The position numbers and the translations under genes were made by a program. 64,000 nt of DNA from Pirellulaceae bacterium (GTDB lineage: Bacteria; Planctomycetota; Planctomycetia; Pirellulales; Pirellulaceae), in NCBI GenBank assembly GCA_041399205.1, contig JAWKTK010000011.1:122448-186447 (forward strand), written 5' to 3'. Of this stretch, positions 510 through 41,558 are shown piece by piece; the stretch's first letter is position 1; every line of letters begins with the position of its first letter. The notes beneath the pieces are model-generated. The model was not told where the DNA came from, made no database searches, and saw only the letters and a program-made list of their open reading frames with translations.

Positions 510-3407
510 TTGAACGAGTCGTCTCATATGGCAAAGAAATCCGAAGGTACCGGCAAGTCTTTGGTGATTGTGGAATCGCCAGCCAAAGCACGAACGATCT
601 CGAAATTCCTTGGCAAGAACTATACCGTCGAAGCCAGTGTGGGGCATGTTCGAGACCTGCCCAGCGGCAGTAAACAGGTTCCCGAAGAATTCAAGAAAGA
701 GAATTGGTCCTATTTGGGGGTTAATGTCGAGGATAAATTTACACCAATTTATATTATACCGGACGACAAAAAGCAGCAGGTTACCAAGCTTCGCAAGGCG
801 TTGAAGGAATCGGATTCCTTGTATCTGGCGACGGACGAAGACCGCGAAGGGGAGGCGATTAGCTGGCATTTGTCTGAAATTCTCAAGCCCAAAGTTCCGG
901 TCAAGCGTTTGGTTTTCCACGAAATCACCAAACCAGCCATCGAAGCGGCGCTCGCGTCACCTCGTGATATTGACGAAGGCTTGGTCCGCGCCCAGGAAAC
1001 GCGACGCATTCTGGATCGTCTGTACGGTTACGACGTTTCGCAATTGCTGTGGAAGAAGGTGGGTCGAGGGCTTTCGGCGGGTCGAGTGCAAAGTGTGGCG
1101 GTGCGATTGATTGTGCAGCGCGAACGGGAACGCATGGCCTTTGTGAGTTCGGACTATTGGGATTTGATCGGCACGTTTGCCAAACAACAAGGCGCGCAGT
1201 TCGAAACGACATTGGTGTCCGTGGATGGTCGCCGGATTCCTCGAGCCAAAGATTTTGATTCGGCAACCGGAAAACTGCTGAACGAAAACTTGTTGCTGCT
1301 GGATGAGACAGCGGCCAAAGAGTTGGCAGACAAACTCACCAGCGCCGAGTTTTCGGTCACCAATTTGGAAGTCAAACCGTTCACGGAAAAACCCAAAGCT
1401 CCGTTTACCACCAGTACGCTTCAACAAGAAGCCAACCGCAAATTGGGTTTCACCGCCAAGCGAACCATGGCGGCGGCGCAAAGTTTGTATGAAAACGGTT
1501 TCATCACCTACATGCGAACCGATTCCACCACGTTGGCCGATGTCGCACTGAAGGCCGCGCGAAATTTGGTTCAATCGGAATACGGCCCGGATTACCTGTA
1601 CGAATCGCCTCGAGTCTACGCTTCCAAGGTCAAGAACGCTCAGGAAGCTCACGAAGCGATTCGTCCCGCCGGAACGGAATTTCCCACGCCGATGGCGCTG
1701 AAGGATAAACTTCGCGAAGACCAGTTCAAACTTTATGATTTGATCTGGAAACGAACCATCGCCAGCCAAATGGCCGACGCCAAAAAACGTCGGATCACCA
1801 TTTCGATCGAAGGCGCCGGCGCGCTGTTCCAAGTCAGCGGTACGACGATTGATTTTGAAGGTTTTCTACGAGCGTACGTGGAAGGTTCTGACGATCCAGA
1901 AGCGGAATTGGCCGACAAGGAAACACTGCTTCCACCTGTGGAAAAGGGTGAAAAAGTCATTCCCAAAAAGATGGAAGCTAAGGGCCATTCTACCAAACCG
2001 CCGGCTCGTTTCAGCGAAGCGGCGCTCACGCAAGAATTAGAAAAACGAGGGATCGGTCGGCCCAGTACCTATGCGTCGATTATCGAAACCATTCAGGATC
2101 GTCGCTACGTTTTCAAAAAGGGAAACGCCCTGGTTCCCAACTGGATTGCGTTTAGCGTGATTCGATTATTGGAAGAGCATTTTCCCAACTTGGTGGATTA
2201 TGAATTCACCGCGCAGATGGAAGACTATTTGGATTCCATCAGTCGCCAAGAAGCGGAACACTTGAAGTATCTGAACGACTTCTATTTTGGTAACGGCAAG
2301 CCTGGTTTAAAGCCCAGTCTGAAGTCCAAGGAAGAAGAGATTGATCCGCGAGTGATGAGTCGCTTTCCCGTGGGTAATCCGCCGGCCGATTTGGAAGGCT
2401 TTAATGCGGACGAACCGATTGTGTTACGAGTGGGCAAGTGGGGACCGTTTTTAGAGCACGGCGAAAGGAAAGCGAGTCTGCCGGATGGAATGGCTCCGGA
2501 CGAATTGACTCTGGAGAAGGCGATTGAACTGTTGACGCAAGCGGCGGTGGAAGACGAACCATTGGGTGTCGATCCAGAAACGGGTAAGCCCGTTTACATC
2601 AAGGTCGGCCGCTTCGGACCGTACGTCCAGCTAGGACATCCGGACGACGAAGAGAAGCCCAAGAATGCGTCACTGCTAAAAGGCATGGTGGCCAACGAAA
2701 TTGACTTGGAAACGGCACTCAAGCTCCTTTCGATTCCTCGTGATTTAGGTGTCTACCCAGAGAATAACGAGCCGATTGTGGCATACAACGGCCGTTTCGG
2801 TCCGTACATTAAATGTGACAAGGAAACACGATCGCTGGGTGCTATTTCTCCACTGGACGTCACTCTGGAACAAGCGATCGAACTGCTGAAACAGCCGAAG
2901 ACTCGAGGCCGAGGTGCGGCGAAGGAACCGCTGAAGGTTTTTGAACAAAAGTCTCCTGTGACAGAAGAAGAAGTCAAACTGTTGGACGGTCGTTATGGCC
3001 CGTACGTTACCGACGGCAGCACCAATGCGTCGTTGCCCAAAGACGCGAAGCCGGAAGAATTGACCTTTGAACAAGCTTTAAGTCTATTGGCGGAACGTGC
3101 CGCCAAAGCTCCGGCCAAGAAGAAAAAGAAAAAGGCAGCCAAAAAGAAAACGGCCAAGAAGACGACAGCGAAGAAGAAAACGGCCAAGAAGAAAAAACGG
3201 CCCAGAAAAAGACAACAACGAAGAAAAGCAGCTAGGCGTGCGACTCTGACGATTCCGCATTGGCAGGTCGTCTGTCCAATTGCCGAAGAAGATGACCGCC
3301 CGGGAAAACTGTTGTCCTATCAGTGGCCGGCCAGGCCGATGGTTCTGGCCACTCGCCGCACGGTCCACCAAGGATTGCAGGCAGCGGCCCAACCCATCCG
3401 CAAGTAA
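510..3407 (+). CDS. topA: DNA topoisomerase I with a lysine-rich, histone H1-like C-terminal tail
   Basis: 965-aa ORF. N-terminal TOPRIM motif LVIVESPAKARTISKFLG. C-terminal tail AKKKKKKAAKKKTAKKTTAKKKTAKKKKRPRK encoded by a purine-rich tract near 3110-3230. The true start may be the MAKKSEG methionine at 528. Confidence 0.9.
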   Translation: MNESSHMAKKSEGTGKSLVIVESPAKARTISKFLGKNYTVEASVGHVRDLPSGSKQVPEEFKKENWSYLGVNVEDKFTPIYIIPDDKKQQVTKLRKALKESDSLYLATDEDREGEAISWHLSEILKPKVPVKRLVFHEITKPAIEAALASPRDIDEGLVRAQETRRILDRLYGYDVSQLLWKKVGRGLSAGRVQSVAVRLIVQRERERMAFVSSDYWDLIGTFAKQQGAQFETTLVSVDGRRIPRAKDFDSATGKLLNENLLLLDETAAKELADKLTSAEFSVTNLEVKPFTEKPKAPFTTSTLQQEANRKLGFTAKRTMAAAQSLYENGFITYMRTDSTTLADVALKAARNLVQSEYGPDYLYESPRVYASKVKNAQEAHEAIRPAGTEFPTPMALKDKLREDQFKLYDLIWKRTIASQMADAKKRRITISIEGAGALFQVSGTTIDFEGFLRAYVEGSDDPEAELADKETLLPPVEKGEKVIPKKMEAKGHSTKPPARFSEAALTQELEKRGIGRPSTYASIIETIQDRRYVFKKGNALVPNWIAFSVIRLLEEHFPNLVDYEFTAQMEDYLDSISRQEAEHLKYLNDFYFGNGKPGLKPSLKSKEEEIDPRVMSRFPVGNPPADLEGFNADEPIVLRVGKWGPFLEHGERKASLPDGMAPDELTLEKAIELLTQAAVEDEPLGVDPETGKPVYIKVGRFGPYVQLGHPDDEEKPKNASLLKGMVANEIDLETALKLLSIPRDLGVYPENNEPIVAYNGRFGPYIKCDKETRSLGAISPLDVTLEQAIELLKQPKTRGRGAAKEPLKVFEQKSPVTEEEVKLLDGRYGPYVTDGSTNASLPKDAKPEELTFEQALSLLAERAAKAPAKKKKKKAAKKKTAKKTTAKKKTAKKKKRPRKRQQRRKAARRATLTIPHWQVVCPIAEEDDRPGKLLSYQWPARPMVLATRRTVHQGLQAAAQPIRK

Positions 3408-9308: not shown

Positions 9309-10341
9309 TCACTTGGGCAACGCTCCGGTATCGCGGTACCAGGCCACCAGATCGTTCAGTCGAAGCTGTAACCGCTTTGTACAAGAAAATCCTAGTTCGG
9401 ACCGAATTCGCTGGCTGGAGCAAGCCCACGGACCGTTTTGGGCTTCTCTAGCCTTGTCCCAGTTGAAAATATGAGGCCTACGTCGAATTCGCCCCCACGC
9501 TTCATTGACCGATGCGGTGGTGTTAATTAGCCAACGAGATGCTTGGACGGTTCGAACCGTTCGCTTCTCTAATGCTTTGGCCAGCATGTCTCCCAGCTCC
9601 GCGAAACTAGGCGTCTGTTCGGCTGCCACAAAATAGACACCTCGGCTATCGGCGCCGCTGGCAAACTCACAATTCAACGTTTGCCCTTGTTCCGCCACCA
9701 ATTTCAATGCCACGGCAACATCCTCGGCCGCGATTAACGAAATCGGTTGGCTATGTGTCAGCGGAGCCAGATGGACGCCGAATTGACTAATCGGCTTCAC
9801 CATCTCGAGGAACTCGGTGTCATGCGGTCCAAAAACAATGGGAGGTCGCACAATAGATATGGGCATGTGCTGGGCGAACCGAGCTGCTTCCAGTTCTGCG
9901 CGGCGTTTGCTGGCGCCGTAGCGTGAAACTGGCGAAACCGGATCTTCTTCTCTTCGAAGACGACCGGTCAGCGCTGGCCCCGCAGCCGCCAGCGACGACA
10001 CGACAATCAGCTTGGGCGGCGTCGATTGCGGCACACACCTTTGCCAATGTTGCTGTGCCTTGCGAATTGGTACGAAACAAATCGGAGGCACGAAACGCCT
10101 TGGTCAGTCCGGCCAGATGGTAGACCACATCTATTGGTCCCACGGCAGTTCGCAAACTCGATTCATCATTCAGGTCACCATGAACGAATCGAACTTGCCA
10201 AGATGTGAGGCGGTCCACGCGAGACGATGCTCGCACAAGACATGTGACATCCTCGCCCGCCCGCGCCAAATGCGCAACGACATGTGCTCCCAAGAAGCCA
10301 GAAGCTCCCGTAACCAGAACGCGACTCATTACGACGACCAA
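9309..10341 (-). pseudogene. NAD-dependent epimerase/dehydratase interrupted by a frameshift near 10020-10030
   Basis: Two overlapping minus-strand ORFs in different frames. 9820..10341 has the N-terminal Rossmann motif MSRVLVTGASGFLGAHVV. 9309..10091 has the YGASKRRAE (YxxxK) catalytic motif and the C-terminal part. Reading continuity switches between ...KVCAAIDAAQ and PKLIVVSS. Confidence 0.7.
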
Positions 10342-10569: not shown

Positions 10570-11628
10570 TTACGGGGAGCTCTTCAAGCGGTAGACATAG
10601 GCCAACAATTCGGCAATGGCCTGATACATTTCCACGGGGATTTCGTCTCCTACTTCCACCATCCGATACAGGGCTCGTGCCAATGGCTTGCGTTCCAACA
10701 CTGGAACATCGTGCTGTTCGGCAATTTCAATGATTCGCAACGCCAAAAAGTCGGCACCTTTGGCAACCACTTTGGGAGCACCGCCCGCTTCTTGATCATA
10801 CTTCAAGGCCACAGCAAAATGCGTAGGATTTCGCACAACCGCGTCCGCGCCGGGCACGTTTTTCATCATTCGCCGGTTTGCGGTTTCACGCTGAATCTTC
10901 TTCAATCTTGCCTTCAGATGTGGATCGCCTTCCGATTCCTTGTGTTCGCGTTTGACTTCTTCCAACGTCATTCTCAAATCCATTTCGTGCTGCCAACGCT
11001 GGAACAGATAGTCGCCAATCCCTAGCGTGGTCAACGCTAATCCGGATGACCCAATGATCTTGATCACAATGTTCCATGTCGTAGCAACCGTTTCATTCAC
11101 GGACGTAAATCCAATAGCATAGATTTGTCCAAAGTCATTGCGCATCACAAAGAACACAACACATGTGATTACAATCACCTTTAGAATAGCCATGATGCCA
11201 CGAACTGTGGTGCGAATAGAAAACAGCCGCTGAAATCCATTGGTAGGAAGCAAACGATCCCATTTGATTTCCAGTGTTTCCGAAGAAAACTGAATTCCGT
11301 TCTGCAAGACGTACACCAGAATGTTTGCCAGAAACAAGCTGACGACCACAGCCGCCGTAGCGTAAAACAAGCGGATGCCAAACAGTTGTCCCGCAACGAT
11401 CACTTCGTTTGAACCCCACTGGATGCGATCCAGTCCCACCAGTTCGGCTCGCATCACTTGAAACAACACACCTCCCAACATTTCGCCCATCGACCAAAAG
11501 ACCGCCGCCAACACTAGCAACACCAGACCCGTCGCCAGGTCCGAACTGGTAGCCAGTTGACCCCGGCGCCGCGCTTCATCGCGACGACGCTGCGTAGGTG
11601 CTTCCGTCTTTGATTGTTGCGAATCCAT
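10570..11628 (-). CDS. flhB: Flagellar export apparatus protein FlhB
   Basis: 352 aa. N-terminus KTEAPTQRRRDEARRRGQLATSSDL, four TM helices, and the NPTH autocleavage motif (NPTHFAVALKYD). Confidence 0.9.
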   Translation of the reverse strand: MDSQQSKTEAPTQRRRDEARRRGQLATSSDLATGLVLLVLAAVFWSMGEMLGGVLFQVMRAELVGLDRIQWGSNEVIVAGQLFGIRLFYATAAVVVSLFLANILVYVLQNGIQFSSETLEIKWDRLLPTNGFQRLFSIRTTVRGIMAILKVIVITCVVFFVMRNDFGQIYAIGFTSVNETVATTWNIVIKIIGSSGLALTTLGIGDYLFQRWQHEMDLRMTLEEVKREHKESEGDPHLKARLKKIQRETANRRMMKNVPGADAVVRNPTHFAVALKYDQEAGGAPKVVAKGADFLALRIIEIAEQHDVPVLERKPLARALYRMVEVGDEIPVEMYQAIAELLAYVYRLKSSP

Positions 11629-11714: not shown

Positions 11715-12498
11715 CTAGCGAAAGAATCGCATCCAATCAATAGCCGACTCCTGGATCAACCATTGTAGATGCACAGCCATGGCGGGTAAAAACACGAGCA
11801 ACGCTCCCAACCCCACCGTCAAACGCAACGTAAATCCCAGCGAAAAAATATTGATCTGGGGCGACGCCTTCATCAGTACGCCCAGCATGACAATCGTCAA
11901 GAACAAACAGATGCCTACCGGCGCGGCTAACAACACACCGTCGCGGTGTACCTGTGACGATTCAACCACCAAGGCATCAAGCGGAGCGTCGCTCCAGAAT
12001 TTTCCAATCGGAAGGGCAAAAAAGGACTGGTACACAACGGTGAGAATGCCATGATGAACATTCGCACCTAACAATAGCAGAATGGCAAACGACTGAAAGA
12101 TTTCACCCACGATGTTCGTCATCACATTGGTGCCTGGGTCAATCAGAGATGCTTGGTTGAGTCCCATTTCGTTACCAATGTACGAACCAGCGATTCGAGC
12201 TGGTTCGAGAAACAGACCAAACGCAAAACCAATGGCGCCGCCTACGATTACTTCGCGAAGAACGCAAACGGCAAATTGCAGCCAGGCGGCAGGGCCATCC
12301 GCCGCCGAAGCATGAAACAGCATGTGATTCGGTACGATTGGAAACCAGCACAGCGTGAGCGAAACTGACAGGCCGACTTTCACCAGATTTGGCAATCGTC
12401 TTCCGCCAAATAGCGGAAAAAACACAATGAAGGCGCCTATCCGAGTCAGCATGAGGACAAAGCCCAGAATCAGCGGTTCCAGCATGTATTGCGTCATC
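11715..12498 (-). CDS. fliR: Flagellar export apparatus protein FliR
   Basis: Family-typical N-terminus MTQYMLEPLILGFVLMLTRIGAFIVFFPLFGG and a polytopic membrane body. The start ATG (minus, 12496-12498) overlaps a TGA, giving an ATGA junction. The ORF-track start at 12557 is an artefact of reading into the tandem repeat. Confidence 0.85.
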
Positions 12499-12698
12499 GA
12501 CCGGCCTCGGCGGCATAGTAAAAAGCGTGTTGTGTCATCGACCGGCCTCGGCGGCATAGTAAAAAACGTGTTGTGTCATCGACCGGCGTCGGTGGCATAG
12601 TAAAAAGCGTGTTGTGTCATCGACCGGCGTCGGTGGCATAGTAAAAAGCGGGTTGCGTCATCGACCGGCCTCGGCGGCATAGTAAAACATGTTCTGGG
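12494..12698 (-). repeat. Five copies of a 41-bp tandem repeat at the fliQ/fliR junction, each regenerating a TGA/ATG (ATGA) overlap
   Basis: Copies start at 12494, 12535, 12576, 12617 and 12658, with a unit like GTCATCGACCGGCCTCGGCGGCATAGTAAAAAGCGTGTTGT. The unit fuses a fliR-head-like segment (ATGACaCAAcAC-GCT) to a fliQ-tail-like segment (TTTTACTATGCCGCCGAGGCCGGTCGATGA). On the minus strand each unit reads ATG ACA CAA CAC GCT TTT TAC TAT GCC GCC GAG GCC GGT CGA TGA. Copies differ by 1-4 substitutions. Confidence 0.9.
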
Positions 12699-12945
12699 CA
12701 AAGTTCATCAGCACATGCAAGGACCACGGTAATGTGAAGGCAAGCACTAGCCCCACTGCAAAAATGCGTGGCGCAAAACTCAGAGTTTGCTCTTGGATGC
12801 TGGTGACCGTCTGAAAGATGCTAATCGCCAAACCGACCAACAGACTGACCGCGATCGTGGGAGCTGTCAGCAGCAGTGACGTGTAAAACAGTTCACGACC
12901 AATCTGGACGACCGTATCCATCTCCATAACACTTCTCCTGGTCAC
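12658..12945 (-). CDS. fliQ: Flagellar export apparatus protein FliQ
   Basis: About 89-95 aa with two TM helices. MEMDTVVQIGRELFYTSLLLTAPTIAVSLLVGLAISIFQTVTSIQEQTLSFAPRIF matches the FliQ family. Its last codons and the TGA stop lie inside the tandem repeat. Confidence 0.85.
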   Translation of the reverse strand: MTRRSVMEMDTVVQIGRELFYTSLLLTAPTIAVSLLVGLAISIFQTVTSIQEQTLSFAPRIFAVGLVLAFTLPWSLHVLMNFAQNMFYYAAEAGR

Positions 12946-12971: not shown

Positions 12972-13663
12972 CTATCCAAAGCTGGAACTCAACGCCTGGG
13001 CTACTAGTCGCCAGCCGTCGACTAACACAAACAATAACACTTTGAATGGTAGCGACAGCATCATGGGCGGCATCATCATCATGCCTAACGACATTAAGAT
13101 GGTAGATACCACTAGGTCAATCAGCATGAACGGGATGTAGATGCAAAATCCCATGATAAAGGCGGTTTTGAGTTCGCTCATCATGAACGCCGGCACTAAC
13201 ACTCGTAGCTTGGTGTCTTCCGGCGTACGGCGGTTCTTCTCGAGACAATTCGACGAACAGCCGCAATGTCGTCTTTGCGAGTTTGATACAGCATGAATGA
13301 TTTCAGTTCCGAAGTCGCCAGCGCAATCGCTTCCACTCCGGCAATTTTGCCATCCACGTACGGCGTAATCGCTTTTTCGGCCACCGCATCAATCGTTGGG
13401 CCCATGATAAACATGGTCAAAAACAGCGACATGCCCAAGACCACCGGCGTAGGCGGAATTTCCTGAGTGGTTAACGCTCGCCGGACAAAAGAAAAGACAA
13501 TGACAATTCGAGTGAACGCGGTTAGGGAAACCAATGCCGTGGTCAGAAACGCAAAGCCGCCCATGAACAAGGCAACTTGGATGGGAGTGGCTAGTTCGCC
13601 CAGGTTTTCCGACTGTGTTACTCGAGCGGCAAGGTCTAGGTAAGCGTTGGTCTGCGGGTCCAC
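12972..13663 (-). pseudogene. fliP: Flagellar export apparatus protein FliP, interrupted by a frameshift near 13230-13245
   Basis: ORF 13196..13663 carries the FliP N-terminal and middle part (...FTRIVIVFSFVRRALTTQEIPP...[10 protein letters not shown]). ORF 12972..13202 (GTG start) carries the C-terminus [18 protein letters not shown]...[14 protein letters not shown]. The second frame is also open upstream ([18 protein letters not shown]) and matches the FliP consensus. A 1-nt indel in the agaagaacc run explains the split. Confidence 0.8.
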
Positions 13664-14463
13664 GATGGCGCCTCCATGTAGTTGGACGAATTCGTTTCGA
13701 AAAGGCTGCGTCGCGAGGAACCGTTGTCTAGCGAATGCGAGTCATGGCTGTCGGCAGGTGCAAGCGGTGTGTTCGAATCAAGTTGATCCATCACATCCAC
13801 AAAATCGCTGGACAAGACTTCCATATGCTGCAGGCCGTGCGCATCCATTCCTAATAACACTTTGTGCTGCCCAACTCGTACCAGTCGCAATTGGACTTTG
13901 CCATTCACCTGCAATGATTCCACAACCGCCAATTCGGACACCGCTTGTTTGTTGGGCACGTTGGACTTGAGCCAACGTTTGGCCAACAACAGCGTTCCGC
14001 CGCACAGGATCATCACTCCGAAGGTGGCGAACACAAGCTGGCTGACCACTTGCGCAAAATCGATTTTTTCAGGCGAATGGGCCGGCGTGATTTGACTGGG
14101 AGTGTCTTGTTCGTACCACGGCTTGCTGGCGACGGCTGTGGGAGCGGGCAAGTCGTCTTGTTCGGCCGGTTCCAGGCGTCGCACCTGCGTTGATTTGGAC
14201 ACGCGATTCGTGGCACCTACGGTTCGGGGCGAAGGCGAATCTTGAACATCACCTTCGTTCGAATCTCCGGGGGTTGCGGAAGTAGAAGGATGCCCATTCG
14301 CCGAGACTGATTCCGGCGTGCTGGCTTGGATTTGTCTAAACGCTGCCAGAATGGCGTCCGAACCGGTTGGTTCCGTTTCGTTCGCGCAAGCTGAGTTTGT
14401 GCAACAAGCCAATCTGACCAGCAGCAGAAAACCAACCGTCCGTCGAGTGTAGGGCCAATCCAT
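13636..14463 (-). CDS. fliO: FliO-like flagellar biosynthesis protein with a long N-terminal extension
   Basis: The C-terminal part has a TM helix (VFATFGVMILCGGTLLLAKRWLK) followed by VNGKVQLRLVRVGQHKVLLGMDAHGLQHMEVL, typical of FliO. It lies directly upstream of fliP, overlapping by 28 bp. At 275 aa it is much longer than usual, so the start is uncertain. Confidence 0.55.
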   Translation of the reverse strand: MDWPYTRRTVGFLLLVRLACCTNSACANETEPTGSDAILAAFRQIQASTPESVSANGHPSTSATPGDSNEGDVQDSPSPRTVGATNRVSKSTQVRRLEPAEQDDLPAPTAVASKPWYEQDTPSQITPAHSPEKIDFAQVVSQLVFATFGVMILCGGTLLLAKRWLKSNVPNKQAVSELAVVESLQVNGKVQLRLVRVGQHKVLLGMDAHGLQHMEVLSSDFVDVMDQLDSNTPLAPADSHDSHSLDNGSSRRSLFETNSSNYMEAPSWTRRPTLT

Positions 14464-14799: not shown

Positions 14800-16245
14800 T
14801 TACAGCAGCGAAAGGACCAACTGGCTGGTCTGGTTGGCGTTCGACAGAATCGAAGTACCTGCCTGAACCAAAACCTGCTGTTTGGTGAAGTTGGCGATTT
14901 CCGAAGCAAAGTCGGTATCTCGAATCACCGATTCCGCAGCCACTGAGTTTTCCAAGGTGGTTTGCAAGTTGCTGGCCGTCGATTCCAACGTATTCTGCTG
15001 GAACGCACCCAATGCACCTCGCAAGTTGGTGATTTCGTCGATGGCCGCATCAATGACGGCGATGGAGTCTTGAGCTTCTGTGTCGGTCAGAACACTGATT
15101 TCCGCTAGGCTAGTAAACTTATTTCCTTCGACTCCAACACCAAGTGAGTCCGGATTCGCCTTATCTACGCCAATCGATGCGGTTTGGTATGCATTTGGAC
15201 CGATTTGGAACGTGAGACGATCGTCGGCAAGTGCAATGATGGCTTGGCTGTCGGCTCCAGCACCCACGGTTAGTGCTGGATCCGTCCCATCTTCCGCGAA
15301 CCGAATAGTTAGTCCTTTTGCAACCCCGCTGTCCGCCGTGACTACGTTGCCATCGCCCGTATAATTCACTGTTGGCGCACCGACGGCTGAACCAGTAAAC
15401 GATGCTACAACGTCGACACCTTGACCGGTAATCGTTGCAATTCCGATACCCGAACTATCCGCAGCAGCTACGACATTGGAGACAACAGATATCTCGTTAG
15501 CGCTGCCAAATCCACGAGAATAGAGACGGGTTTCACCGCCGGCGCCGCCCTTATCTGCGGTCACGCCCGTCTCACTAGTGTATTCGTTGATACGTTTGAC
15601 AACGGCGTCCTGATCCATGCCTTGGTTCAATTCGATAGCAACGCCGTTGACATTAACAATTTCATCGGCGGCAAGTGTTGTTGTTTGCAACGTGCCCGCT
15701 TCCGCAACGGCTCGTTGCCCTTGCGTAACGACTTCCACACTATAGTTGTCAACCGTTACGGAGGAATTGGCTCGCACGAAGTCGACATTGGTATTCGTAG
15801 ACGTCGCATTGTAGCCCGCCGAGCCGTCCAACAGCTTTTTATTGGCGAATTGTGTGTTGTTGGCAATACGATTAATGGTATCCAAGGCGTTATCAATTTC
15901 CGCTTGGTTAGCAGCCAACGCGTCTGCGTCATTCACACCAGAGTTCGCTGCGTCCAACGCCAAGCCGCGAGCTCGATTGAGCAGTGTGCTGATTTCGTTC
16001 AAGGCACCTTCCGCCGTTTGAACCACGGTAACGCCCTTGTTGGCGTTTTCGATGGCTTGTTCGATACCTACGATTTGAGCTCGTTGCTTTTCCGAAATCA
16101 CCAACGCGGCAGGACCGTCGGCACCTCGGTTCACTTTCAAACCAGACGACAATCGTTCCAGCGATTTGCCCAACGATTTGGACGAACGAGCCAGATTGTT
16201 CTGTGCTGTAATGGACGACACGTTGTTGGCAATGACAAGGCTCAT
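14800..16245 (-). CDS. fliC: Flagellin
   Basis: 481 aa. Conserved N-terminal D0/D1 (ANNVSSITAQNNLARSSKSLGKSLERLSSGLKVNRGADGPAALVISEKQRAQIVG) and C-terminal D0 (DFASEIANFTKQQVLVQAGTSILSNANQTSQLVLSLL). Confidence 0.95.
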   Translation of the reverse strand: MSLVIANNVSSITAQNNLARSSKSLGKSLERLSSGLKVNRGADGPAALVISEKQRAQIVGIEQAIENANKGVTVVQTAEGALNEISTLLNRARGLALDAANSGVNDADALAANQAEIDNALDTINRIANNTQFANKKLLDGSAGYNATSTNTNVDFVRANSSVTVDNYSVEVVTQGQRAVAEAGTLQTTTLAADEIVNVNGVAIELNQGMDQDAVVKRINEYTSETGVTADKGGAGGETRLYSRGFGSANEISVVSNVVAAADSSGIGIATITGQGVDVVASFTGSAVGAPTVNYTGDGNVVTADSGVAKGLTIRFAEDGTDPALTVGAGADSQAIIALADDRLTFQIGPNAYQTASIGVDKANPDSLGVGVEGNKFTSLAEISVLTDTEAQDSIAVIDAAIDEITNLRGALGAFQQNTLESTASNLQTTLENSVAAESVIRDTDFASEIANFTKQQVLVQAGTSILSNANQTSQLVLSLL

Positions 16246-18833: not shown

Positions 18834-19146
18834 AATTGGTCTCCCGCCCAACGTTCGTGTTCACTCGCTCGCGTTTTTTGAAGTTGCGCTTTTTCATAGC
18901 CCGAAACGTAAGTGAGGGGAAACGGAGTGATTCTCTGGTCCCTCGCTGACGCTTCGGGCTAGGAAATTACGCCGAAAAAACGCGAGTACGCAACTTCAAA
19001 ACTCTCGCTTCGGGCGAGGATATTCCGCCGAAAAACGAGAATGCGGAACGTTCAAGCCAACGCGTGGCCACGAACCTGAGCAGCTTGAAACACTGACACA
19101 TCGCTGGTCACGACGATTTGAACCAAACGTGCCGAAGTGCCGAATC

Positions 19147-24329: not shown

Positions 24330-25560
24330 CTGCGATCCGTTCGACTACTCTCGCTCCTCACGAGCCTTGTTCGTAGTCCCGCTTTGTTCGTAGTCCCGCC
24401 TTTAGGCGAAACAGCACGGAACGACGATTCCGCCTAAAGGCGGGACTACGAACGACCTTGAATGCAAAACGAAATATCGCAACCGTGAATAAACGCAATA
24501 CGCAAGCGAAACGAACAGTGAGTCACGCGATTCTGGTATTTCGATTGATTTTTCTCAATGTATTTTCATTTGTATTTTTCAATTTGATTTTCAATTTGTA
24601 TTTGCAATCCGGCCAGTCGTTGTACCTGTTTACGTCCCGTCTTGTTCGTAGTCCCGCCTTTAGGCAAACAGCACGGAACGACGATTCGCCTAAAGGCGGA
24701 CACACAACCGGAATGCAAAACGAAATACGCAACCGTGAATGCAAAACGCAATACGCAAGGCGCAAAACGAACAGTGAGTCACACGCGAATTCTGCGTATT
24801 TCGATTGCATTTTCATTTCATTTGTATTTTTCATTTGATTTGCAATCCGGCCATCGTTGGTCTGCATAAAAAGTTACGTCCGCCTGTAGTCCGCTTGAAC
24901 ACCGAACGACGATTCCGCCTAAGGCGGACTACGAACGACCGTGAATGCAAAACGAAATACGCAACCGTGAATGCAAAACGCAATACGCAAGTTGACGCAA
25001 GAAACTGAACAGTGAGCGTCACACGCGAATTCTGCGTATTTCGATTTGCATTTTTCAATTTTCAATTTGTATTTTTTCAATTTGATTTTGCAATCCGGCC
25101 AGTCGTTGGCCTGCACCTAACGAAAGTTTACGTCCCGTCTTGTTCGTAGTCCCGCCTTTAGGCGGAAGCAGAACGGAACGACGATTCCGCCTAAAGGCGG
25201 GACTACGAACGACCGTGAATGCAAAACGAAAATACGCAACCGTGAATGCAAAACGAAATACGCAACCGTGAATGCAAAACGCAATACGCAAGTTGACGCA
25301 AGAAACTGAACAGTGAGCGTCACACGCGAATTCTGCGTATTTCGATTTGCATTTTTATTTGCAATTTTATTTTTCAATTTGTATTTTGCAATCCGGCCAG
25401 TCGTTGGCCTGCACCTAACGAAAGTTTACGTCCCGCCTTGTTCGTAGTCCCGCCTTTAGGCGAAACAGCACGGAACGACGATTCCGCCTAAGGCGGGACT
25501 ACGAACGACCGTGAATGCAAAACGAAAATACGCTGCACTTCTTTCGTGCAGTTTCGGACG
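24330..25560. repeat. Complex intergenic tandem macro-repeat of about five composite units (244-296 bp each)
   Basis: Unit anchors near 24380, 24641, 24885, 25141 and 25437. Each full unit has four parts. (i) A perfect hairpin GTTCGTAGTCCCGCCTTTAGGCG-22 nt-CGCCTAAAGGCGGGACTACGAAC (copies 2-3 degenerate). (ii) One to three adjacent 26-27-bp direct repeats GTGAATGCAAAACGAAATACGCAACC. (iii) TTGCGTATTTCGATTTGCATT, the reverse complement of the direct repeat with one mismatch. (iv) CAATTTGTATTTT micro-repeats and the GGCCAGTCGTTGGCC palindrome. The array ends about 130 bp before the secretin start codon. Confidence 0.9.
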
Positions 25561-25693: not shown

Positions 25694-28600
25694 ATGATCG
25701 GAAAACTAGGGTCCACGCGAATCGCCGTGTTGTTGCTGTGCAGCGTATTGGTTCCCAGTTCGTTGCTGTTCGGCCAATCGACTGGTTCAGCGTACGAATC
25801 GATTGCATGCCAAAATCGGCGTCCATCCGAATTGCAGCCGATGCTGTTGGACTTGTTGCCTAAGGACGGTTCGGTGCATTTGGTGGCCGACGATGGTAGT
25901 GGTCAAATCCTGATCAAGGCGAACGCAGATGATTTGCGGACCGCTCGCAGCGCGATCGCTCGGCTCGACCGACGGCCGGAAGCGAGCTTAACTGCGGGTG
26001 ATTCGAACCTTGCCTTTCGCGAGCCAGTTCGTTCGGCGCAGTTGGCTCGGCCATTGTCTTCGTTCGAATCCAACGGTTCGAATTCCGCAATCACTAGGCC
26101 AACAACGGCGGCACCGGCAGCCAGGCCACTGGACAACAATTCGGTCAGCCGATTTGTGGCGTTGCCCGCAGATGCGGCGGCCATCGAACAACGGTTTCAG
26201 TCGTTGCTAGGCCAGCGTTTGAATCATATCGCCCACGACAATATTTATCTATTAACCACCGCTGCCGGTGAAACCATTGAATTTGAATTCGACCATCGAC
26301 GACGAGGCGTCTTGGTGACCGCTCGCGCGGCGCTCGTTGATCAAGCGGCTCGTTTGCTGCAAGCAGTTGCGCCAACCGCCGAAGCCGATTCGCGCACTGC
26401 GGTCGTTTCGATCGAACGGACGGATCCGTATCGGCTAAGAGAAGCGATCGAAGCTTACCGAGGCCAAAACGGCAGTGACCAACGCTTGTCACCGGCAGGT
26501 TCGAATCGAACGAACCAACCCAATCCTAATCAAAGCAGCCAAGTCCTAGCTCCGGGCAGCGGCTTGGCGTTGGTCAACTATCTGTTCCAGGACCAAAACG
26601 CAGAAGCATCCACAGCCGACTCGAACGAACCCGCCGCAACCTCGCCGGCTGCGGCCACCACGCCCGGCGGTTTGGACGTGGATGTGGAAGTGGAAACGTT
26701 GCCGGATTTGGATGTAATTATTCTTCGCGGCCGCAACCGAGACGTGCGGAAGCTGACAGAAATTATCCAAGAATTGGAACGGTTGAGCCGCGAGACTCAG
26801 CCGGCCATTCGCATTGTTCAATTGCAACATGCCCAAAGTGAAGCGATCGCCACGATTGTGGAAGGCGTGCAAGAAGACCTGACAGGCCGGCGGCAAGGCC
26901 GAGTGAGCGTGACGCCGTTGGTGAAGCCGAATGCATTGCTGCTGATTGGTTGGGGTGACGCGATCGAGTCCGTAGTGGAATTAATTCAGAAACTCGACAC
27001 ACCCGTAGCGCCGGAAACGCAATTCCAAGTCTTTCGGCTGCGCAGTGCGAACGCCACGATTGCTCAGACCGCGGTCACTCAGTTTTTTGCGAACCGCACC
27101 GGGCTCGGTCCCAAAGTTCAGGCCTTGGCAGATATTCAATCCAATTCGCTGATTGTGTACGCTTCGCCTCGAGACATGCAGGAAGTACAACGTTTGGTCG
27201 AATCGATCGATTCGCCGGCCAGTGGCATGGTGAATCGAGCGGAAGTGGTGCCGCTGAAGAATTCGCTGGCGACGGATTTGGCAGCCACCTTGCAGACTGC
27301 CATTCAATCAACGGACGGCGCAGGACAACCGACTGGCGTGCTGGAATTATTGACCGTGGATGCGGCGGGCGAGCAGTTGATTCGATCGGGAATTTTGTCT
27401 CGAGTGAAAATCACGGCGAACGCTCGGAACAATTCGCTGATCATCAGTGGTCCCAAAGAAACAGTGCCGATGATTCGCGCGTTGATCAATGAACTCGATT
27501 CGCCCGGCGCGGTCGCGCAGATCAAAGTCTTCCGGATTCTGAACGGTGACGCCACCAGTCTCGTGCAGATGTTGCGTTCGCTGCTGCCGACGCAAACGGG
27601 AGCGAACATTGGTCCTCAGCTGCCCACGGCGGACGGCGATACTTCGTTGGCGCCGCTGCGTTTTGCGGTCGACAACCGGACCAACAGTATTATCGCCACG
27701 GGCGGCGCGGGAGACTTGGAAATTGTTCAGGCGTTGCTGCTTCGCTTGGACGAAAAAGATATTGCCGAACGGCGGAACGAAGTTTATCGGCTGAAGAACG
27801 CGCCGGCGATTGACGTGGCAGCCGCGATTAACGAATTCCTGCGAAGTGAACGCATTGTTTCGCAAGCAGCGCCCGGCGTGCAAAATCCGTTTGAACAGAT
27901 TGAAAAAGAAGTGGTGGTGGTGCCCGAACCGGTTCGCAACACCTTGATCATCAGCGCCACGCCTCGTTACTTTGACGAAATTGAACGTCTGGTCCAAGAA
28001 CTGGATCAAGAGCCGCCACAAGTGATGATCCAAGTGCTGATTGCGGAAATCACGCTGGGCAGCCAGACCGAGTTTGGTGTTGAACTGGGGCTGCAAGATT
28101 CCGTGTTGTTTGATCGTGGACTATTGGAGAATATTTTCTATCGAACCACATCGACACAAACGTCTACTCCAGCTGGAATTGTAACGACAACCGATCAGAT
28201 CATCGAAGCGGCTGAAAACACACCTGGTTTCAACTTCAACAACCAACCGTTGGGCAACAGCGGCAGTACCAAGGCGCTGCAGAATTCTGATCGAGTGGGA
28301 TCGCAGGGCTTATCCAGTTTTGCGGTAGGACGAGTGAATTCGGAGTTGGGTTTTGGCGGTTTGGTGTTGTCGGCCAGTAGTGATAGTGTGAGCGTATTGC
28401 TGCGAGCGTTGCAGGAATCGCGAAGATTGGACGTGCTGAGTCGACCTCAGATTCGAACCTTGGACAATCAAACGGCCTTCATTCAAGTGGGTCAACGCGT
28501 GCCAAGAATTGTACAATCGAACGTCACGGACGGTGGTCGGCAAACCAACGAAGTGGCGTTGGAAAACGTCGGTTTGATTCTGGGCGTGACGCCTCGGATC

Positions 28601-29428
28601 AGTCCCGCGGGCACAGTGGTGATGGAGATTGACGCGGAAAAATCTTCGTTAGGGCCCGAAGCCGAAGGGATTCCGGTTTCGTTTGCACCGGACGGAAGTG
28701 CCATTCGTTCGCCTCGAATCGATACGACCACGGCTCAGGCTACGGTTAGCGCTTCCAGCGGTGAAACGATTATTCTGGGCGGACTGATCACTAAGGAAAC
28801 GCAAGCGATCACTCGCCGAGTACCTTATCTTTCGGACATTCCGTTGTTAGGTAATGCGTTTCGGTTTGATTCCAGCGCGCATCGCCGCAAAGAGCTGCTG
28901 ATTGTGTTGACGCCGCATGTGATTCGCAGTCCGGAAGATTCCGAGCGAATTAATCAGATTGAAATGGCTCGCATGTCTTGGTGTGCGGCCGATGTGTTTG
29001 AAGTGCACGGTGACATGGGATTGTCATCGCAAATGACCATGTTTGACGAATCAGCTCCGGCAGTGATCTATCCGCACGAGAATCCTCGAGGAGTGCCTTC
29101 GCCCGTGGAAGCTCCGGGCCTGGAAGCGATGCCTCCCGGTGAATACGAAATTCCCAGTCCGGTTCCTTCGCCCACGCCGTTCGGTTCGCTGAATGGACCA
29201 AGAGGTGACGGCGTTGATGGGCGGCAGGCGGACAGTCGGCAGGTTCGCGCAGACGCGATTCAGGACGAACGCATCGCGCCCACTCGTTATGCAACCGAAT
29301 ACCAACCGAACGATACGCGAGCGAACCGATACGGACAAACGCCCATTGACTACACGCAATACATTGTGCCATCCGCGGACCAGCAGCAGACAGCAACCAT
29401 CGGGCGGCGGTCGGACGCATCGCGATGA
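25694..29428 (+). CDS. Giant secretin (GspD/PilQ family) with an expanded N-terminal domain region and a C-terminal extension
   Basis: 1244 aa with a signal peptide. Repeated N1-type secretin-N domain motifs (NSLIISGPKETVPMIRALINELD, NTLIISATPRYFDEIERLVQELD). Secretin core VLSRPQIRTLDNQTAFIQVGQRVP...GETIILGGLI...VPYLSDIPLLGNAFRFDSS...LLIVLTPHVI. Confidence 0.85.
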   Translation: MIGKLGSTRIAVLLLCSVLVPSSLLFGQSTGSAYESIACQNRRPSELQPMLLDLLPKDGSVHLVADDGSGQILIKANADDLRTARSAIARLDRRPEASLTAGDSNLAFREPVRSAQLARPLSSFESNGSNSAITRPTTAAPAARPLDNNSVSRFVALPADAAAIEQRFQSLLGQRLNHIAHDNIYLLTTAAGETIEFEFDHRRRGVLVTARAALVDQAARLLQAVAPTAEADSRTAVVSIERTDPYRLREAIEAYRGQNGSDQRLSPAGSNRTNQPNPNQSSQVLAPGSGLALVNYLFQDQNAEASTADSNEPAATSPAAATTPGGLDVDVEVETLPDLDVIILRGRNRDVRKLTEIIQELERLSRETQPAIRIVQLQHAQSEAIATIVEGVQEDLTGRRQGRVSVTPLVKPNALLLIGWGDAIESVVELIQKLDTPVAPETQFQVFRLRSANATIAQTAVTQFFANRTGLGPKVQALADIQSNSLIVYASPRDMQEVQRLVESIDSPASGMVNRAEVVPLKNSLATDLAATLQTAIQSTDGAGQPTGVLELLTVDAAGEQLIRSGILSRVKITANARNNSLIISGPKETVPMIRALINELDSPGAVAQIKVFRILNGDATSLVQMLRSLLPTQTGANIGPQLPTADGDTSLAPLRFAVDNRTNSIIATGGAGDLEIVQALLLRLDEKDIAERRNEVYRLKNAPAIDVAAAINEFLRSERIVSQAAPGVQNPFEQIEKEVVVVPEPVRNTLIISATPRYFDEIERLVQELDQEPPQVMIQVLIAEITLGSQTEFGVELGLQDSVLFDRGLLENIFYRTTSTQTSTPAGIVTTTDQIIEAAENTPGFNFNNQPLGNSGSTKALQNSDRVGSQGLSSFAVGRVNSELGFGGLVLSASSDSVSVLLRALQESRRLDVLSRPQIRTLDNQTAFIQVGQRVPRIVQSNVTDGGRQTNEVALENVGLILGVTPRISPAGTVVMEIDAEKSSLGPEAEGIPVSFAPDGSAIRSPRIDTTTAQATVSASSGETIILGGLITKETQAITRRVPYLSDIPLLGNAFRFDSSAHRRKELLIVLTPHVIRSPEDSERINQIEMARMSWCAADVFEVHGDMGLSSQMTMFDESAPAVIYPHENPRGVPSPVEAPGLEAMPPGEYEIPSPVPSPTPFGSLNGPRGDGVDGRQADSRQVRADAIQDERIAPTRYATEYQPNDTRANRYGQTPIDYTQYIVPSADQQQTATIGRRSDASR

Positions 29429-39200: not shown

Positions 39201-41558
39201 TTAGTTGCAAGAGCTGCAACCGCCGCATCCGCCTGCGTTTCCAGCACCACCGCAACCGGCAGCACCTGCACCGTATCCAGCTCCAACGCCAGAACCGTAA
39301 ACCGGAACCGTAACGGTGGAAGGAACAGTGACGCACTTACGAACTTGAACTGGCTTCTGAACGGTTACAGGAACGCAAACCGTGTAAGATTCAGTGGTTT
39401 CGTAAGGAACCGTCGTGTAAGACGTTACATTGTCAACCTTGGTGCGAACTTGCGGAACCATTACCGTGTAAGGAACTTCTCGTGTACGAGTTTCCGTGTG
39501 GTAATCGGTTACGTTGTAAGTTTGCTGACGAGTTTCCGTGCGAACTTGTTGAACCTTTTCAGTTCGAGTTCGCGTTTGGTTTTCGTAGCTGCAAACTTTG
39601 ACCATTCGCGTGCGAGTTTCAGGTTGGTATTCAGTAACTTGGCGAGTACGAGTTCGTTGTTCGGTAACGAATTCCGTAACTTGCTCGGTACGAGTACGAG
39701 TCTGAGTTTCGCAGCTGGTCACGTTGACCATACGAGTTCGTTGTTGGTTAACCATACGAGTTACCGGAACGGTGCGAGATCGCTGTTCGGTCTGCATGGT
39801 GGTTACAGGAACCGTTCGAGTTCGCGTTTCCGTTCGATACGTGGTGTAAGGAACGGTGCGAGTCTTTTGTTCTTGAACCATGCGAGTTACGGGAACAGAT
39901 CGAGTTCGCGTTTCGGTTCGCATCGTGGTTACGGGAACAGATCGAGTTCGCGTTTCCGTTCGGAACGTAGTGTAAGGAACGGTGCGAGTCTTCTGTTCTT
40001 GAACCATACGAGTTACCGGAACGGTGCGAGTTCGTGTTTCTGTGTTGTAAGTCGTCACAGGAACCGTTCGAGTTCGCGTTTCAGCATGGTTGACCGTTAC
40101 ATTATAGGTGTAAGGAACCGATTCTAGCTGACGTTCGTAGGTGGTGTAAGGAACCTGTTCTGTGACAGGATTCGACACCCATACTCGTTTGGTAACCGTG
40201 CATGCAGTTCCGACGATTTGTTCGCCACCCATGCCGCCAGCGTAACCGCCGTCAACATAAGCACCGCTTCCACCGCACGCGGAACCAGCCGCAGCAGAAC
40301 CACCACAGCCACAAGCATTGGAGCAAGGAGCACAGTCGCCGCAACCACCGCAGCCACCGCCGCAAGAGCTGACAACAACCGAACCACAGCCACCACAACC
40401 AGCAGCAGCACCCACACCTGCTCCGGCACCGTAAACAGCACCACCAGCACCGTAGCCACCACCAACCGGTTCAACTCGCGTTTCCCAGTGACCTTGGTCA
40501 CGGCAAACCGAGCGATACTTGGTGACGGGAACCATACGGCAAACCGTTCGAGAGGCCGAACGCTGTTCCGTATGAGGAACCATAACCGTGTACGATTCTT
40601 CTCGTTGCGAAGTTACCGGAACCTGAACCGTGTAAGATTCTTCTCGGTTTTCCGTTACAGGAACACAAACCGTGTAAGATTCTTCACGAGTTTCCTGAAC
40701 GGGAACTTGAACCGTGTAAGATTCTTCACGAGTTTCCGTTACAGGAACCTGAACCGTGTAGGATTCTTCGCGGTTTTCCGTTACGGGAACGGTAACCGTG
40801 TAAGTTTCTTCCCGAGTTTCTTGAACTGGGACCTGAACGGTGTAGGTTTCTTCACGCTGAGTCGTAACCGGAACTTGAACCGTATAGGTTTCTTCGCGGT
40901 TTTCCGTTACCGGAACACAAACCGTGTAGGTCTGTTCAACTTGGCGAGTCACAGGAACCTGAACTTGGTAAGTTCGTTCAACCGACTTGGTTCGAGGCAC
41001 CGAAACCGTGTAGTTTTCTACTACTTCACGGGTTACAGGTACGTTGACCGTGTACTGCTGAGGAACTTCCTTCCAGACGGGAACGCGTACTGTGTATTCC
41101 CGAGTGACGTCCGTCCAATATGGAACTTGAACGGTGTAGTCTCGCGTTTCAGTGCGAGTAACTGGTACATTCACGGTGTAATTTTCCGTTCGTGTACGTT
41201 GTTCCGGAACCATGACTGTGTATTCACGAGTCACTTGGCGGGTTTCTGGAACTTGACGATAACGCGTCACCGTTCGTTGACGGGTCTGACGCTGATACTG
41301 GGTTACATTCACCATTTGTGTTTCCGTAACCCACTGCGGTACCATTACTGTACGTTGAACGTAAGCAGGACCGCAATTAACGGCAGGTGCTGACAAATCT
41401 GCTCCGGATACATATGCACCAGAAACATCACCACCACCAACGACAGAACCACCACAATCGGTGGATGCGCCGCAACCACAACCGCAATCCGCACGCAACG
41501 AGCCAACAAGGCCCAGGGCGGCGGTCATGGTCAATGCTAACCAAGAACGATTAAGCAT
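39201..41558 (-). CDS. Secreted, highly repetitive Cys/Gly-rich protein with 14-residue tandem repeats
   Basis: 785 aa with signal peptide MLNRSWLALTMTAALGLVGSLRA. Cys/Gly-rich segments at the N-terminus, centre (about 80 aa) and C-terminus. Block A has about 15 repeats of E[ST]YTVQVPVTETRE. Block B has about 12 repeats of TETRTRTVPVT[TR]M. The underlying DNA repeats are about 42 bp. Confidence 0.75.
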   Translation of the reverse strand: MLNRSWLALTMTAALGLVGSLRADCGCGCGASTDCGGSVVGGGDVSGAYVSGADLSAPAVNCGPAYVQRTVMVPQWVTETQMVNVTQYQRQTRQRTVTRYRQVPETRQVTREYTVMVPEQRTRTENYTVNVPVTRTETRDYTVQVPYWTDVTREYTVRVPVWKEVPQQYTVNVPVTREVVENYTVSVPRTKSVERTYQVQVPVTRQVEQTYTVCVPVTENREETYTVQVPVTTQREETYTVQVPVQETREETYTVTVPVTENREESYTVQVPVTETREESYTVQVPVQETREESYTVCVPVTENREESYTVQVPVTSQREESYTVMVPHTEQRSASRTVCRMVPVTKYRSVCRDQGHWETRVEPVGGGYGAGGAVYGAGAGVGAAAGCGGCGSVVVSSCGGGCGGCGDCAPCSNACGCGGSAAAGSACGGSGAYVDGGYAGGMGGEQIVGTACTVTKRVWVSNPVTEQVPYTTYERQLESVPYTYNVTVNHAETRTRTVPVTTYNTETRTRTVPVTRMVQEQKTRTVPYTTFRTETRTRSVPVTTMRTETRTRSVPVTRMVQEQKTRTVPYTTYRTETRTRTVPVTTMQTEQRSRTVPVTRMVNQQRTRMVNVTSCETQTRTRTEQVTEFVTEQRTRTRQVTEYQPETRTRMVKVCSYENQTRTRTEKVQQVRTETRQQTYNVTDYHTETRTREVPYTVMVPQVRTKVDNVTSYTTVPYETTESYTVCVPVTVQKPVQVRKCVTVPSTVTVPVYGSGVGAGYGAGAAGCGGAGNAGGCGGCSSCN

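Follow-up and report, generated by a model that had tools for sequence, protein, structure and literature searches.

The fliQ–fliR junction and its tandem array

The 64,000-nucleotide (nt) stretch of DNA analysed here (the window) belongs to a 277,816-bp contig of a Pirellulaceae metagenome-assembled genome (MAG). On its minus strand the flagellar export-gate genes fliQ and fliR are both intact and are joined by a tandem array of five 41-nt units, which places four short open reading frames (mini-ORFs) of 45 nt, or 14 codons, each between the two genes. The array and the features that define it are listed below, each mini-ORF peptide being followed by a stop codon.

12489-12692, minus strand: tandem array of five 41-nt units, delimited by Tandem Repeats Finder (TRF), the 41-nt spacing and a pattern search
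12658-12927, minus strand: fliQ, 89 amino acids (aa), intact; Pfam PF01313 (Bac_export_3), E=2.4e-26; identical to NCBI MEZ6117975.1
12617-12661, minus strand: mini-ORF 1, MTQPAFYYATDAGR; its ATG overlaps the fliQ TGA, with GAGG upstream at 12669-12672
12576-12620, minus strand: mini-ORF 2, MTQHAFYYATDAGR; upstream motif degenerated to GACG, 12628-12631
12535-12579, minus strand: mini-ORF 3, MTQHVFYYAAEAGR; upstream motif degenerated to GACG, 12587-12590
12494-12538, minus strand: mini-ORF 4, MTQHAFYYAAEAGR; GAGG upstream at 12546-12549, and its TGA overlaps the fliR ATG
11715-12497, minus strand: fliR, 260 aa, intact; Pfam PF01311 (Bac_export_1), E=1.1e-51; 100% identical to NCBI MEZ6117974.1
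12688-12692, minus strand: ACATG microhomology bordering the array on the fliQ side; the matching motif at 12483-12487, in fliR codons 4-5, lies 205 nt (5 x 41) away

TRF matched the region 12489-12687 with a period of 41, 4.9 copies, 94% matches, 0 indels and a score of 342, and a repeat search gave successive spacings of 41, 41 and 41. When up to 2 mismatches were allowed, a 31-nt core of the unit was found five times at exact 41-nt spacing and not once in 100 shuffles. The five tandem copies described by the first-pass annotation of this DNA are therefore confirmed, and an origin of the array by chance is excluded. The core had no match outside the array when the 64-kb window was searched.

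Each unit consists of a fliR head (ATGAC(A/G)CAA...), a short novel junction core and a fliQ tail (TTTTACTATGCCGCCGAGGCCGGTCG), the fliQ-derived part being the last ~26 nt of that gene. fliQ itself ends in ...NMFYYAAEAGR, with its TGA at 12658-12660, and its last ~33 nt form the first repeat unit, while fliR starts with ATG ACG CAA TAC ATG (MTQYMLEPL...), the ATG being at 12495-12497. A co-directional 4-nt ATGA stop/start overlap is present at all five junctions of the array. The mini-ORFs rotate frame along it, 41 not being a multiple of three. The ORF coordinates agree with the earlier description of a unit fusing the head of fliR to the tail of fliQ, repeated as four serial mini-cistrons with overlapping stops and starts.

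The copies have diverged slightly. Two copies have T/D in place of A/E and one has P in place of H, as had been listed at first pass, and there is a further change of A to V, in mini-ORF 3, which that list had missed. Among the four internal units, 5 of the 41 columns are variable and any two units differ at only 1-3 of the 41 sites; the change of GCC GAG to ACC GAC is derived and common to two adjacent interior units. Every pair of units can be distinguished, and the longest exact repeat inside the array is 43 nt. Retention of the ATG and TGA in all four mini-ORFs is not in itself evidence of selection. The substitutions are too few for such a claim, and the fliQ stop and the fliR start already hold the first and last ATGA in place; by simple arithmetic, the chance that five random substitutions spare all four ATGA positions is about 60%.

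Copy number in relatives and origin of the duplication

A scan of genome contigs found one close relative, the MAG Planctomycetales HKST-UBA27 (L001), and an irrelevant FliR of Psychrobacillus (L002). The junctions compared were those of HKST-UBA27 (L001/L005) and L006-L008, with two copies, and those of L003/L004/L012, L009, L010/L011, L013-L015 and L016-L018, with one. FliR of HKST-UBA27 is 96% identical to that of the window, and its array has the same 41-nt period and one mini-ORF, MTQITIYYAAEAGR, followed by a stop. The same sequence was found in three more independent assemblies, one from Logan (L006) and two from ENA (L007 and L008). A single ATGA overlap was found in a lineage represented by three Logan assemblies (L003, L004 and L012), with FliR 97% identical to that of the window, and also in the more distant relatives L009, L010/L011 (FliQ 78%), and L013-L015 and L016-L018 (FliQ 67-73%).

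The junction comparison proposed at first pass thus revealed 1, 2 or 5 copies between lineages, with no variation within the 2-copy lineage (four assemblies) or the 1-copy lineage (three assemblies). FliQ has 89 aa and FliR 260 aa at 1, 2 and 5 copies alike. The single ATGA overlap, which the first-pass annotation had taken to be the native junction, is present in 10 of 10 single-copy assemblies, which represent five lineages; this state is hence the ancestral one and the duplication derived.

Pairwise nucleotide distances grouped the 1-copy L003 with the 2-copy L005 (0.075), followed by the window (0.11), L009 (0.21) and L010 (0.29), and the closest relative of the 2-copy lineage carries one copy. 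On this distance tree the duplication is explained equally by a single gain with later loss in the L003 lineage and by two separate gains, each needing two events. At synonymous sites the window has diverged from the 2-copy lineage by about 0.45-0.55 (synonymous divergence, dS). The array had been called old and maintained. The first word may hold for the duplication, which would predate the split at dS ~0.5 if it was lost once, but it may equally have arisen twice, and the expansion to five copies looks recent relative to the divergence of the lineages because the internal units differ so little. The second word is not supported, given the single copy in the closest relative of the 2-copy lineage.

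Between the window and HKST-UBA27 the junction core differs at 5 of 15 positions, and all five differences change the peptide. They are compatible with neutral divergence at dS ~0.5, without proving it. The unit pattern (25 nt) and the FliR alignment had no match in JGI metagenome contigs, and a scan of viral contigs also gave no match. A generic, dispersed repeat is thus ruled out for the unit.

The five-copy allele is known from the one MAG, with no second assembly of its lineage, and exact-protein look-ups of the window FliQ and FliR found no contig on record. That the true number of units is fewer or more than five, the copy number being an artefact of assembly, is nevertheless very unlikely in our judgement. 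It is favoured by the single assembly and by suspicious frameshifts in the neighbourhood (described below), but all four unit-to-unit transitions can be told apart, and a 2-copy version with the same period is independently present in four other assemblies. As the longest exact repeat is 43 nt, reads of at least 100 nt or k-mers longer than 43 resolve the array. We conclude, as the first-pass annotation did, that the array is a real tandem duplication and probably not a product of the assembler.

In the single-copy relatives L003 and L009, two (A)CATG motifs were found exactly 41 nt apart, one in fliQ (AAC ATG TTT) and one in fliR codons 4-5. Judged from sequence, this flanking pattern appears to be the signature expected of slippage or of microhomology-mediated tandem duplication. 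The ancestral junction would have had one ATGA overlap between the two CATG motifs; the 41-nt segment would then have been copied by a slipped-strand or microhomology-mediated event, and subsequent slippage may have altered the copy number. Features expected of a minisatellite were all found at the junction: head-to-tail copies of constant period, a single-copy allele with spaced short repeats, and differences in copy number among relatives.

The fliR frame is also open upstream into the repeat, giving a 280-aa ORF that starts from an ATG inside a unit (11715-12557, minus strand). The corresponding extended ORF in HKST-UBA27 (L001, 3920-4783) has 287 aa and starts from TTG. At these loci automatic annotation could wrongly extend FliR at its N-terminus; the database entries all take the 260-aa start.

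Translation signals and the state of the operon

Synonymous variation in fliQ was compared across four lineages at dS >1. In the last 11 codons it was found at 1 of 9 eligible codons, against 75% for the remainder of the gene (P ~1e-4). This fits constraint at the nucleotide level on the fliQ tail, which is most simply explained by an embedded translation-initiation region of fliR. GAGG ends 7 nt before the ATG at three junctions, those of mini-ORF 1, mini-ORF 4 and fliR (12505-12508 for fliR), and GACG is found at the other two; GAGG is a Shine-Dalgarno-like motif and a putative ribosome-binding signal. GGAGG and AGGAG motifs precede fliP and fliQ of the operon at similar spacing, and the distant relatives L013-L015 have no clear motif of this type at the junction. 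Within the unit, the fliQ-tail part stays conserved in the copies, while the novel core varies freely between lineages with changes of amino acids. Comparison of the core between lineages and copies gave no sign of constraint on the mini-ORF peptide.

Folding of the array RNA gave less structure than any of 200 shuffles (minimum free energy z=+2.81), and Rfam gave no match for it at E<=1. An RNA element was rejected on these grounds. No promoter-like or terminator-like site was predicted in the array, and a promoter or terminator within it was likewise rejected. A leader-peptide attenuator is not supported either, the array having no alternative hairpins, terminator or Rfam family.

Strict translational coupling was reported for 13 of 14 gene pairs with ATGA or TGATG overlaps, and removal of the Shine-Dalgarno sequence lowers re-initiation (Huber et al. 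2019, PMC6728339). In the model of Tian & Salis, initiation at a downstream cistron is obtained by adding de novo initiation to re-initiation, cistron by cistron (PMC4538824). We applied this recursion over copy number as a toy calculation of FliR output. With de novo initiation above zero, the modelled output drops once and then reaches a plateau, so that 2 and 5 copies are nearly equal; under strict coupling it falls geometrically with the number of copies.

The genes around fliQ and fliR were identified by Pfam, and the order fliO-fliP-fliQ-fliR-flhB of the flagellar export-gate operon, on the minus strand, is conserved in relatives. Its other members and the neighbouring flagellin gene are as follows.

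10570-11628, minus strand: flhB, intact, downstream operon member; Pfam Bac_export_2
12972-13663, minus strand: fliP, split in two ORFs (13196-13663 and 12972-13202), with positions 5-111 and 121-191 of the FliP profile on separate ORFs
13636-14463, minus strand: fliO; Pfam
14800-16245: flagellin gene, upstream, intact; Pfam

The ratio of nonsynonymous to synonymous divergence (dN/dS) against relatives was 0.007-0.025 for fliQ and 0.03-0.05 for fliR, and 0.01-0.06 for fliQ, fliR and flhB together. Such strong purifying selection on the three genes indicates that the duplication has not abolished their use.

In relatives fliP is intact, with 230 aa, and against it the fliP of this MAG is disrupted. 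Alignment to L001 placed an insertion (+1) near 13262 (GCGGCTG versus GCGCTA) and a deletion (-2) near 13225 (TACGCC versus TACGCGCC), and these indels give a premature stop. The gene is intact in the 2-copy L001 and the 1-copy L012, and disrupted in this MAG only. Either the gene became a pseudogene very recently or the assembly is in error here. If real, the lesion must be very recent, because the neighbouring genes keep a low dN/dS; if it is an assembly error, it lowers trust in the local sequence quality but not in the existence of the duplication.

A gene for an NAD-dependent epimerase/dehydratase (9309-10341, minus strand) is also split, with positions 1-111 and 106-227 of the Pfam Epimerase profile on two overlapping ORFs, and a frameshift near 10000 is likely. 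Four further pairs of overlapping ORFs on one strand were tested for frameshifts and gave none: they are distinct genes or do not divide a protein family between them, so indels do not pervade the window.

Several other repeats were noted in the window. A non-coding, GC-poorer region of about 1.2 kb (24370-25550), upstream of a 1244-aa secretin gene (25694-29428, plus strand), has 4-5 copies of a higher-order unit of 240-300 nt. Within that unit are perfect inverted repeats of 26 nt (GTTCGTAGTCCCGCCTTTAGGCGGAA / TTCCGCCTAAAGGCGGGACTACGAAC, separated by 17 nt), 26-mers in tandem (ACCGTGAATGCAAAACGAAATACGCA) and AT-rich tracts of the TTTCAATTTG type. A 785-aa protein of YTV repeats is encoded at 39201-41558 on the minus strand (Pfam PF07639, 8 matched stretches), and the DNA of this gene has periodicities of 42 and 126 bp at 39750-40082 and 40575-40938. 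Lysine/alanine-rich tandem repeats of 15 and 30 bp are located at 3126-3216 (plus strand), near the C-terminal end of a topoisomerase I ORF (510-3407), and a 56-bp unit is present in 1.9 copies with 82% match at 18950-19055.

Function and meaning of the array

We hold it moderately probable, on comparative sequence grounds, that the array is a tolerated, nearly neutral and lineage-specific minisatellite of the fliQ–fliR junction, born of slippage. The unit holds the fliQ stop, the fliR start and the ~30-nt ribosome-binding region in the 3′ end of fliQ, so every copy rebuilds a complete junction. The first copy would terminate fliQ normally and the last would supply the exact native upstream context for fliR, the interior copies being 14-codon ORFs that arise as a by-product. 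Ribosomes may reach fliR by Shine-Dalgarno-directed initiation on the unstructured mRNA, by serial termination and re-initiation, or by both. FliR output would probably be somewhat lowered, and even a sizeable reduction may be tolerated, as one FliR is needed per gate and flagellum. The array would then be nearly neutral in its effect on fitness or would act at most as a crude step-down, without being a tuned regulator.

Several observations weigh against this reading. Under strict coupling of fliR to fliQ, the four extra re-initiation steps, two of them without GAGG, would cut FliR geometrically, an effect that is not neutral. Should the arrays of two and five copies go back to a common origin, the duplication has outlasted a divergence of dS ~0.5 although direct repeats of 26-30 nt should favour deletion, which might be a sign of selective retention. 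Five copies, moreover, are known from one MAG. Finally, fliP is frameshifted in the same MAG, and the expansion may date to a lineage in which flagellar genes had newly become dispensable.

Alternatively, the array may be an adaptive translational attenuator. Translation of fliR would then depend entirely on termination-reinitiation from fliQ, the output of FliR being reduced at each mini-cistron by a factor equal to its re-initiation efficiency (below one), and copy number would set a low ratio of FliR to FliQ suited to the FliP5Q4R1 gate. The stoichiometry of the gate is established (PMC7064499), the ATGA overlap is conserved across the family, which suggests coupling, and strict coupling is common at such overlaps, with re-initiation lowered when the Shine-Dalgarno sequence is removed (PMC6728339); two internal junctions have lost GAGG. 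The persistence of the duplication in two lineages and the geometric attenuation of the toy model under strict coupling point the same way. Yet relatives whose FliQ and FliR are 96-99% identical in aa sequence manage with 1 or 2 copies, so there is no conserved need for the array. At the last two junctions the native initiation region is complete and the RNA unstructured, which makes de novo initiation plausible and would cap the effect; the content of the mini-ORFs is unconstrained; and the near-identity of the internal units speaks for a recent expansion and not for long maintenance. We regard an adaptive attenuator, and with it the graded attenuation suggested at first pass, as unlikely and not supported by conservation. 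A stricter version, also unlikely, is a heritable coupling ladder tuned by copy number, in which strict re-initiation would make each unit, especially one without GAGG, divide FliR synthesis by a fixed factor. Slippage would then let lineages step the ratio of FliQ to FliR, and hence the number of export gates, with both proteins untouched.

The array might instead have expanded unopposed after the fliP frameshift had recently put an end to flagellar function. This MAG alone has the indels (+1 and -2) behind the premature stop in fliP, and the great similarity of the internal units would make expansion and frameshift both recent. Against such decay, fliQ, fliR, flhB, fliO and flagellin are intact, the comparisons behind the low dN/dS values include the lineage of the window, fliP is undamaged in the 2-copy relative, so that duplication needs no decay, and the indels, like the split epimerase gene, could be assembly errors. 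We find relaxed selection a doubtful explanation. The first-pass annotation had also raised a hypervariable contingency locus, in which frequent slippage within populations would switch flagellar export on and off or between levels. The differences in copy number between lineages (1, 2 and 5) would suit phase variation, but no variation was seen within lineages (four 2-copy and three 1-copy assemblies), the frames of fliQ and fliR cannot be shifted by gain or loss of units because each unit has its own stop and start, and a diverged 41-nt unit is a poor substrate for slippage compared with the classical tracts of 1-8 nt. A contingency locus is scarcely credible here.

The tolerated minisatellite that we favour shares features with several known systems. 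The 4-nt ATGA overlap on one strand at every junction, and the Shine-Dalgarno-like GAGG inside the upstream frame at 3 of 5 junctions, are as in coupled overlapping gene pairs (PMC6728339), of which the ancestral fliQ–fliR junction is a standard example; the overlap of the array differs in being reiterated five times, with 14-codon spacer cistrons that rotate frame. With bacterial minisatellites, or variable number tandem repeats, it has in common the constant period, the boundary microhomology in single-copy alleles, the differences in copy number between lineages and the shared derived substitutions of interior units; unlike them, its unit straddles a gene boundary and the flanking proteins are unchanged at any copy number. 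Simple-sequence contingency loci are similar in placing a repeat tract of lineage-variable copy number in a gene cluster for a surface organelle, but the fliQ–fliR array has no switch by frameshift or promoter spacing, no variation within lineages, and a long, diverged unit. Engineered bicistronic designs, reportedly described by Mutalik et al. in 2013, use a short leader cistron that contains the Shine-Dalgarno sequence of the downstream gene and overlaps its start. The 3′ end of each mini-ORF likewise holds the putative Shine-Dalgarno motif of the next start, which its stop overlaps; the array differs in being natural, in having four such repeats, and in being a product of duplication. Leader-peptide and upstream-ORF attenuators also have short ORFs upstream of a gene, with translation predicted for those of the array, but alternative RNA structures, a terminator, regulatory codon runs and a conserved peptide core are all lacking in the present case. 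Synthetic coupling elements are a further point of comparison (PMC11602170).

Searches of the full-text literature brought up no earlier account of a junction repeated in tandem to give serial, overlapping mini-cistrons. Minisatellites born of slippage, overlapping ATGA junctions and translational coupling are each familiar, and it is the chain of reiterated junctions that is apparently undescribed. The structure alone is a clean natural case of a stop/start junction that was duplicated with both genes unharmed and a unit that is not a multiple of three, and it also points to the 3′ end of fliQ as doubling as the initiation region of fliR. The allelic series of 1, 2 and 5 copies, with and without GAGG, could be used to gauge re-initiation against de novo initiation at ATGA overlaps. 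Should it be true that copy number tunes FliR, the array would represent a new kind of repeat-based control of expression, acting through translational coupling instead of frameshift.

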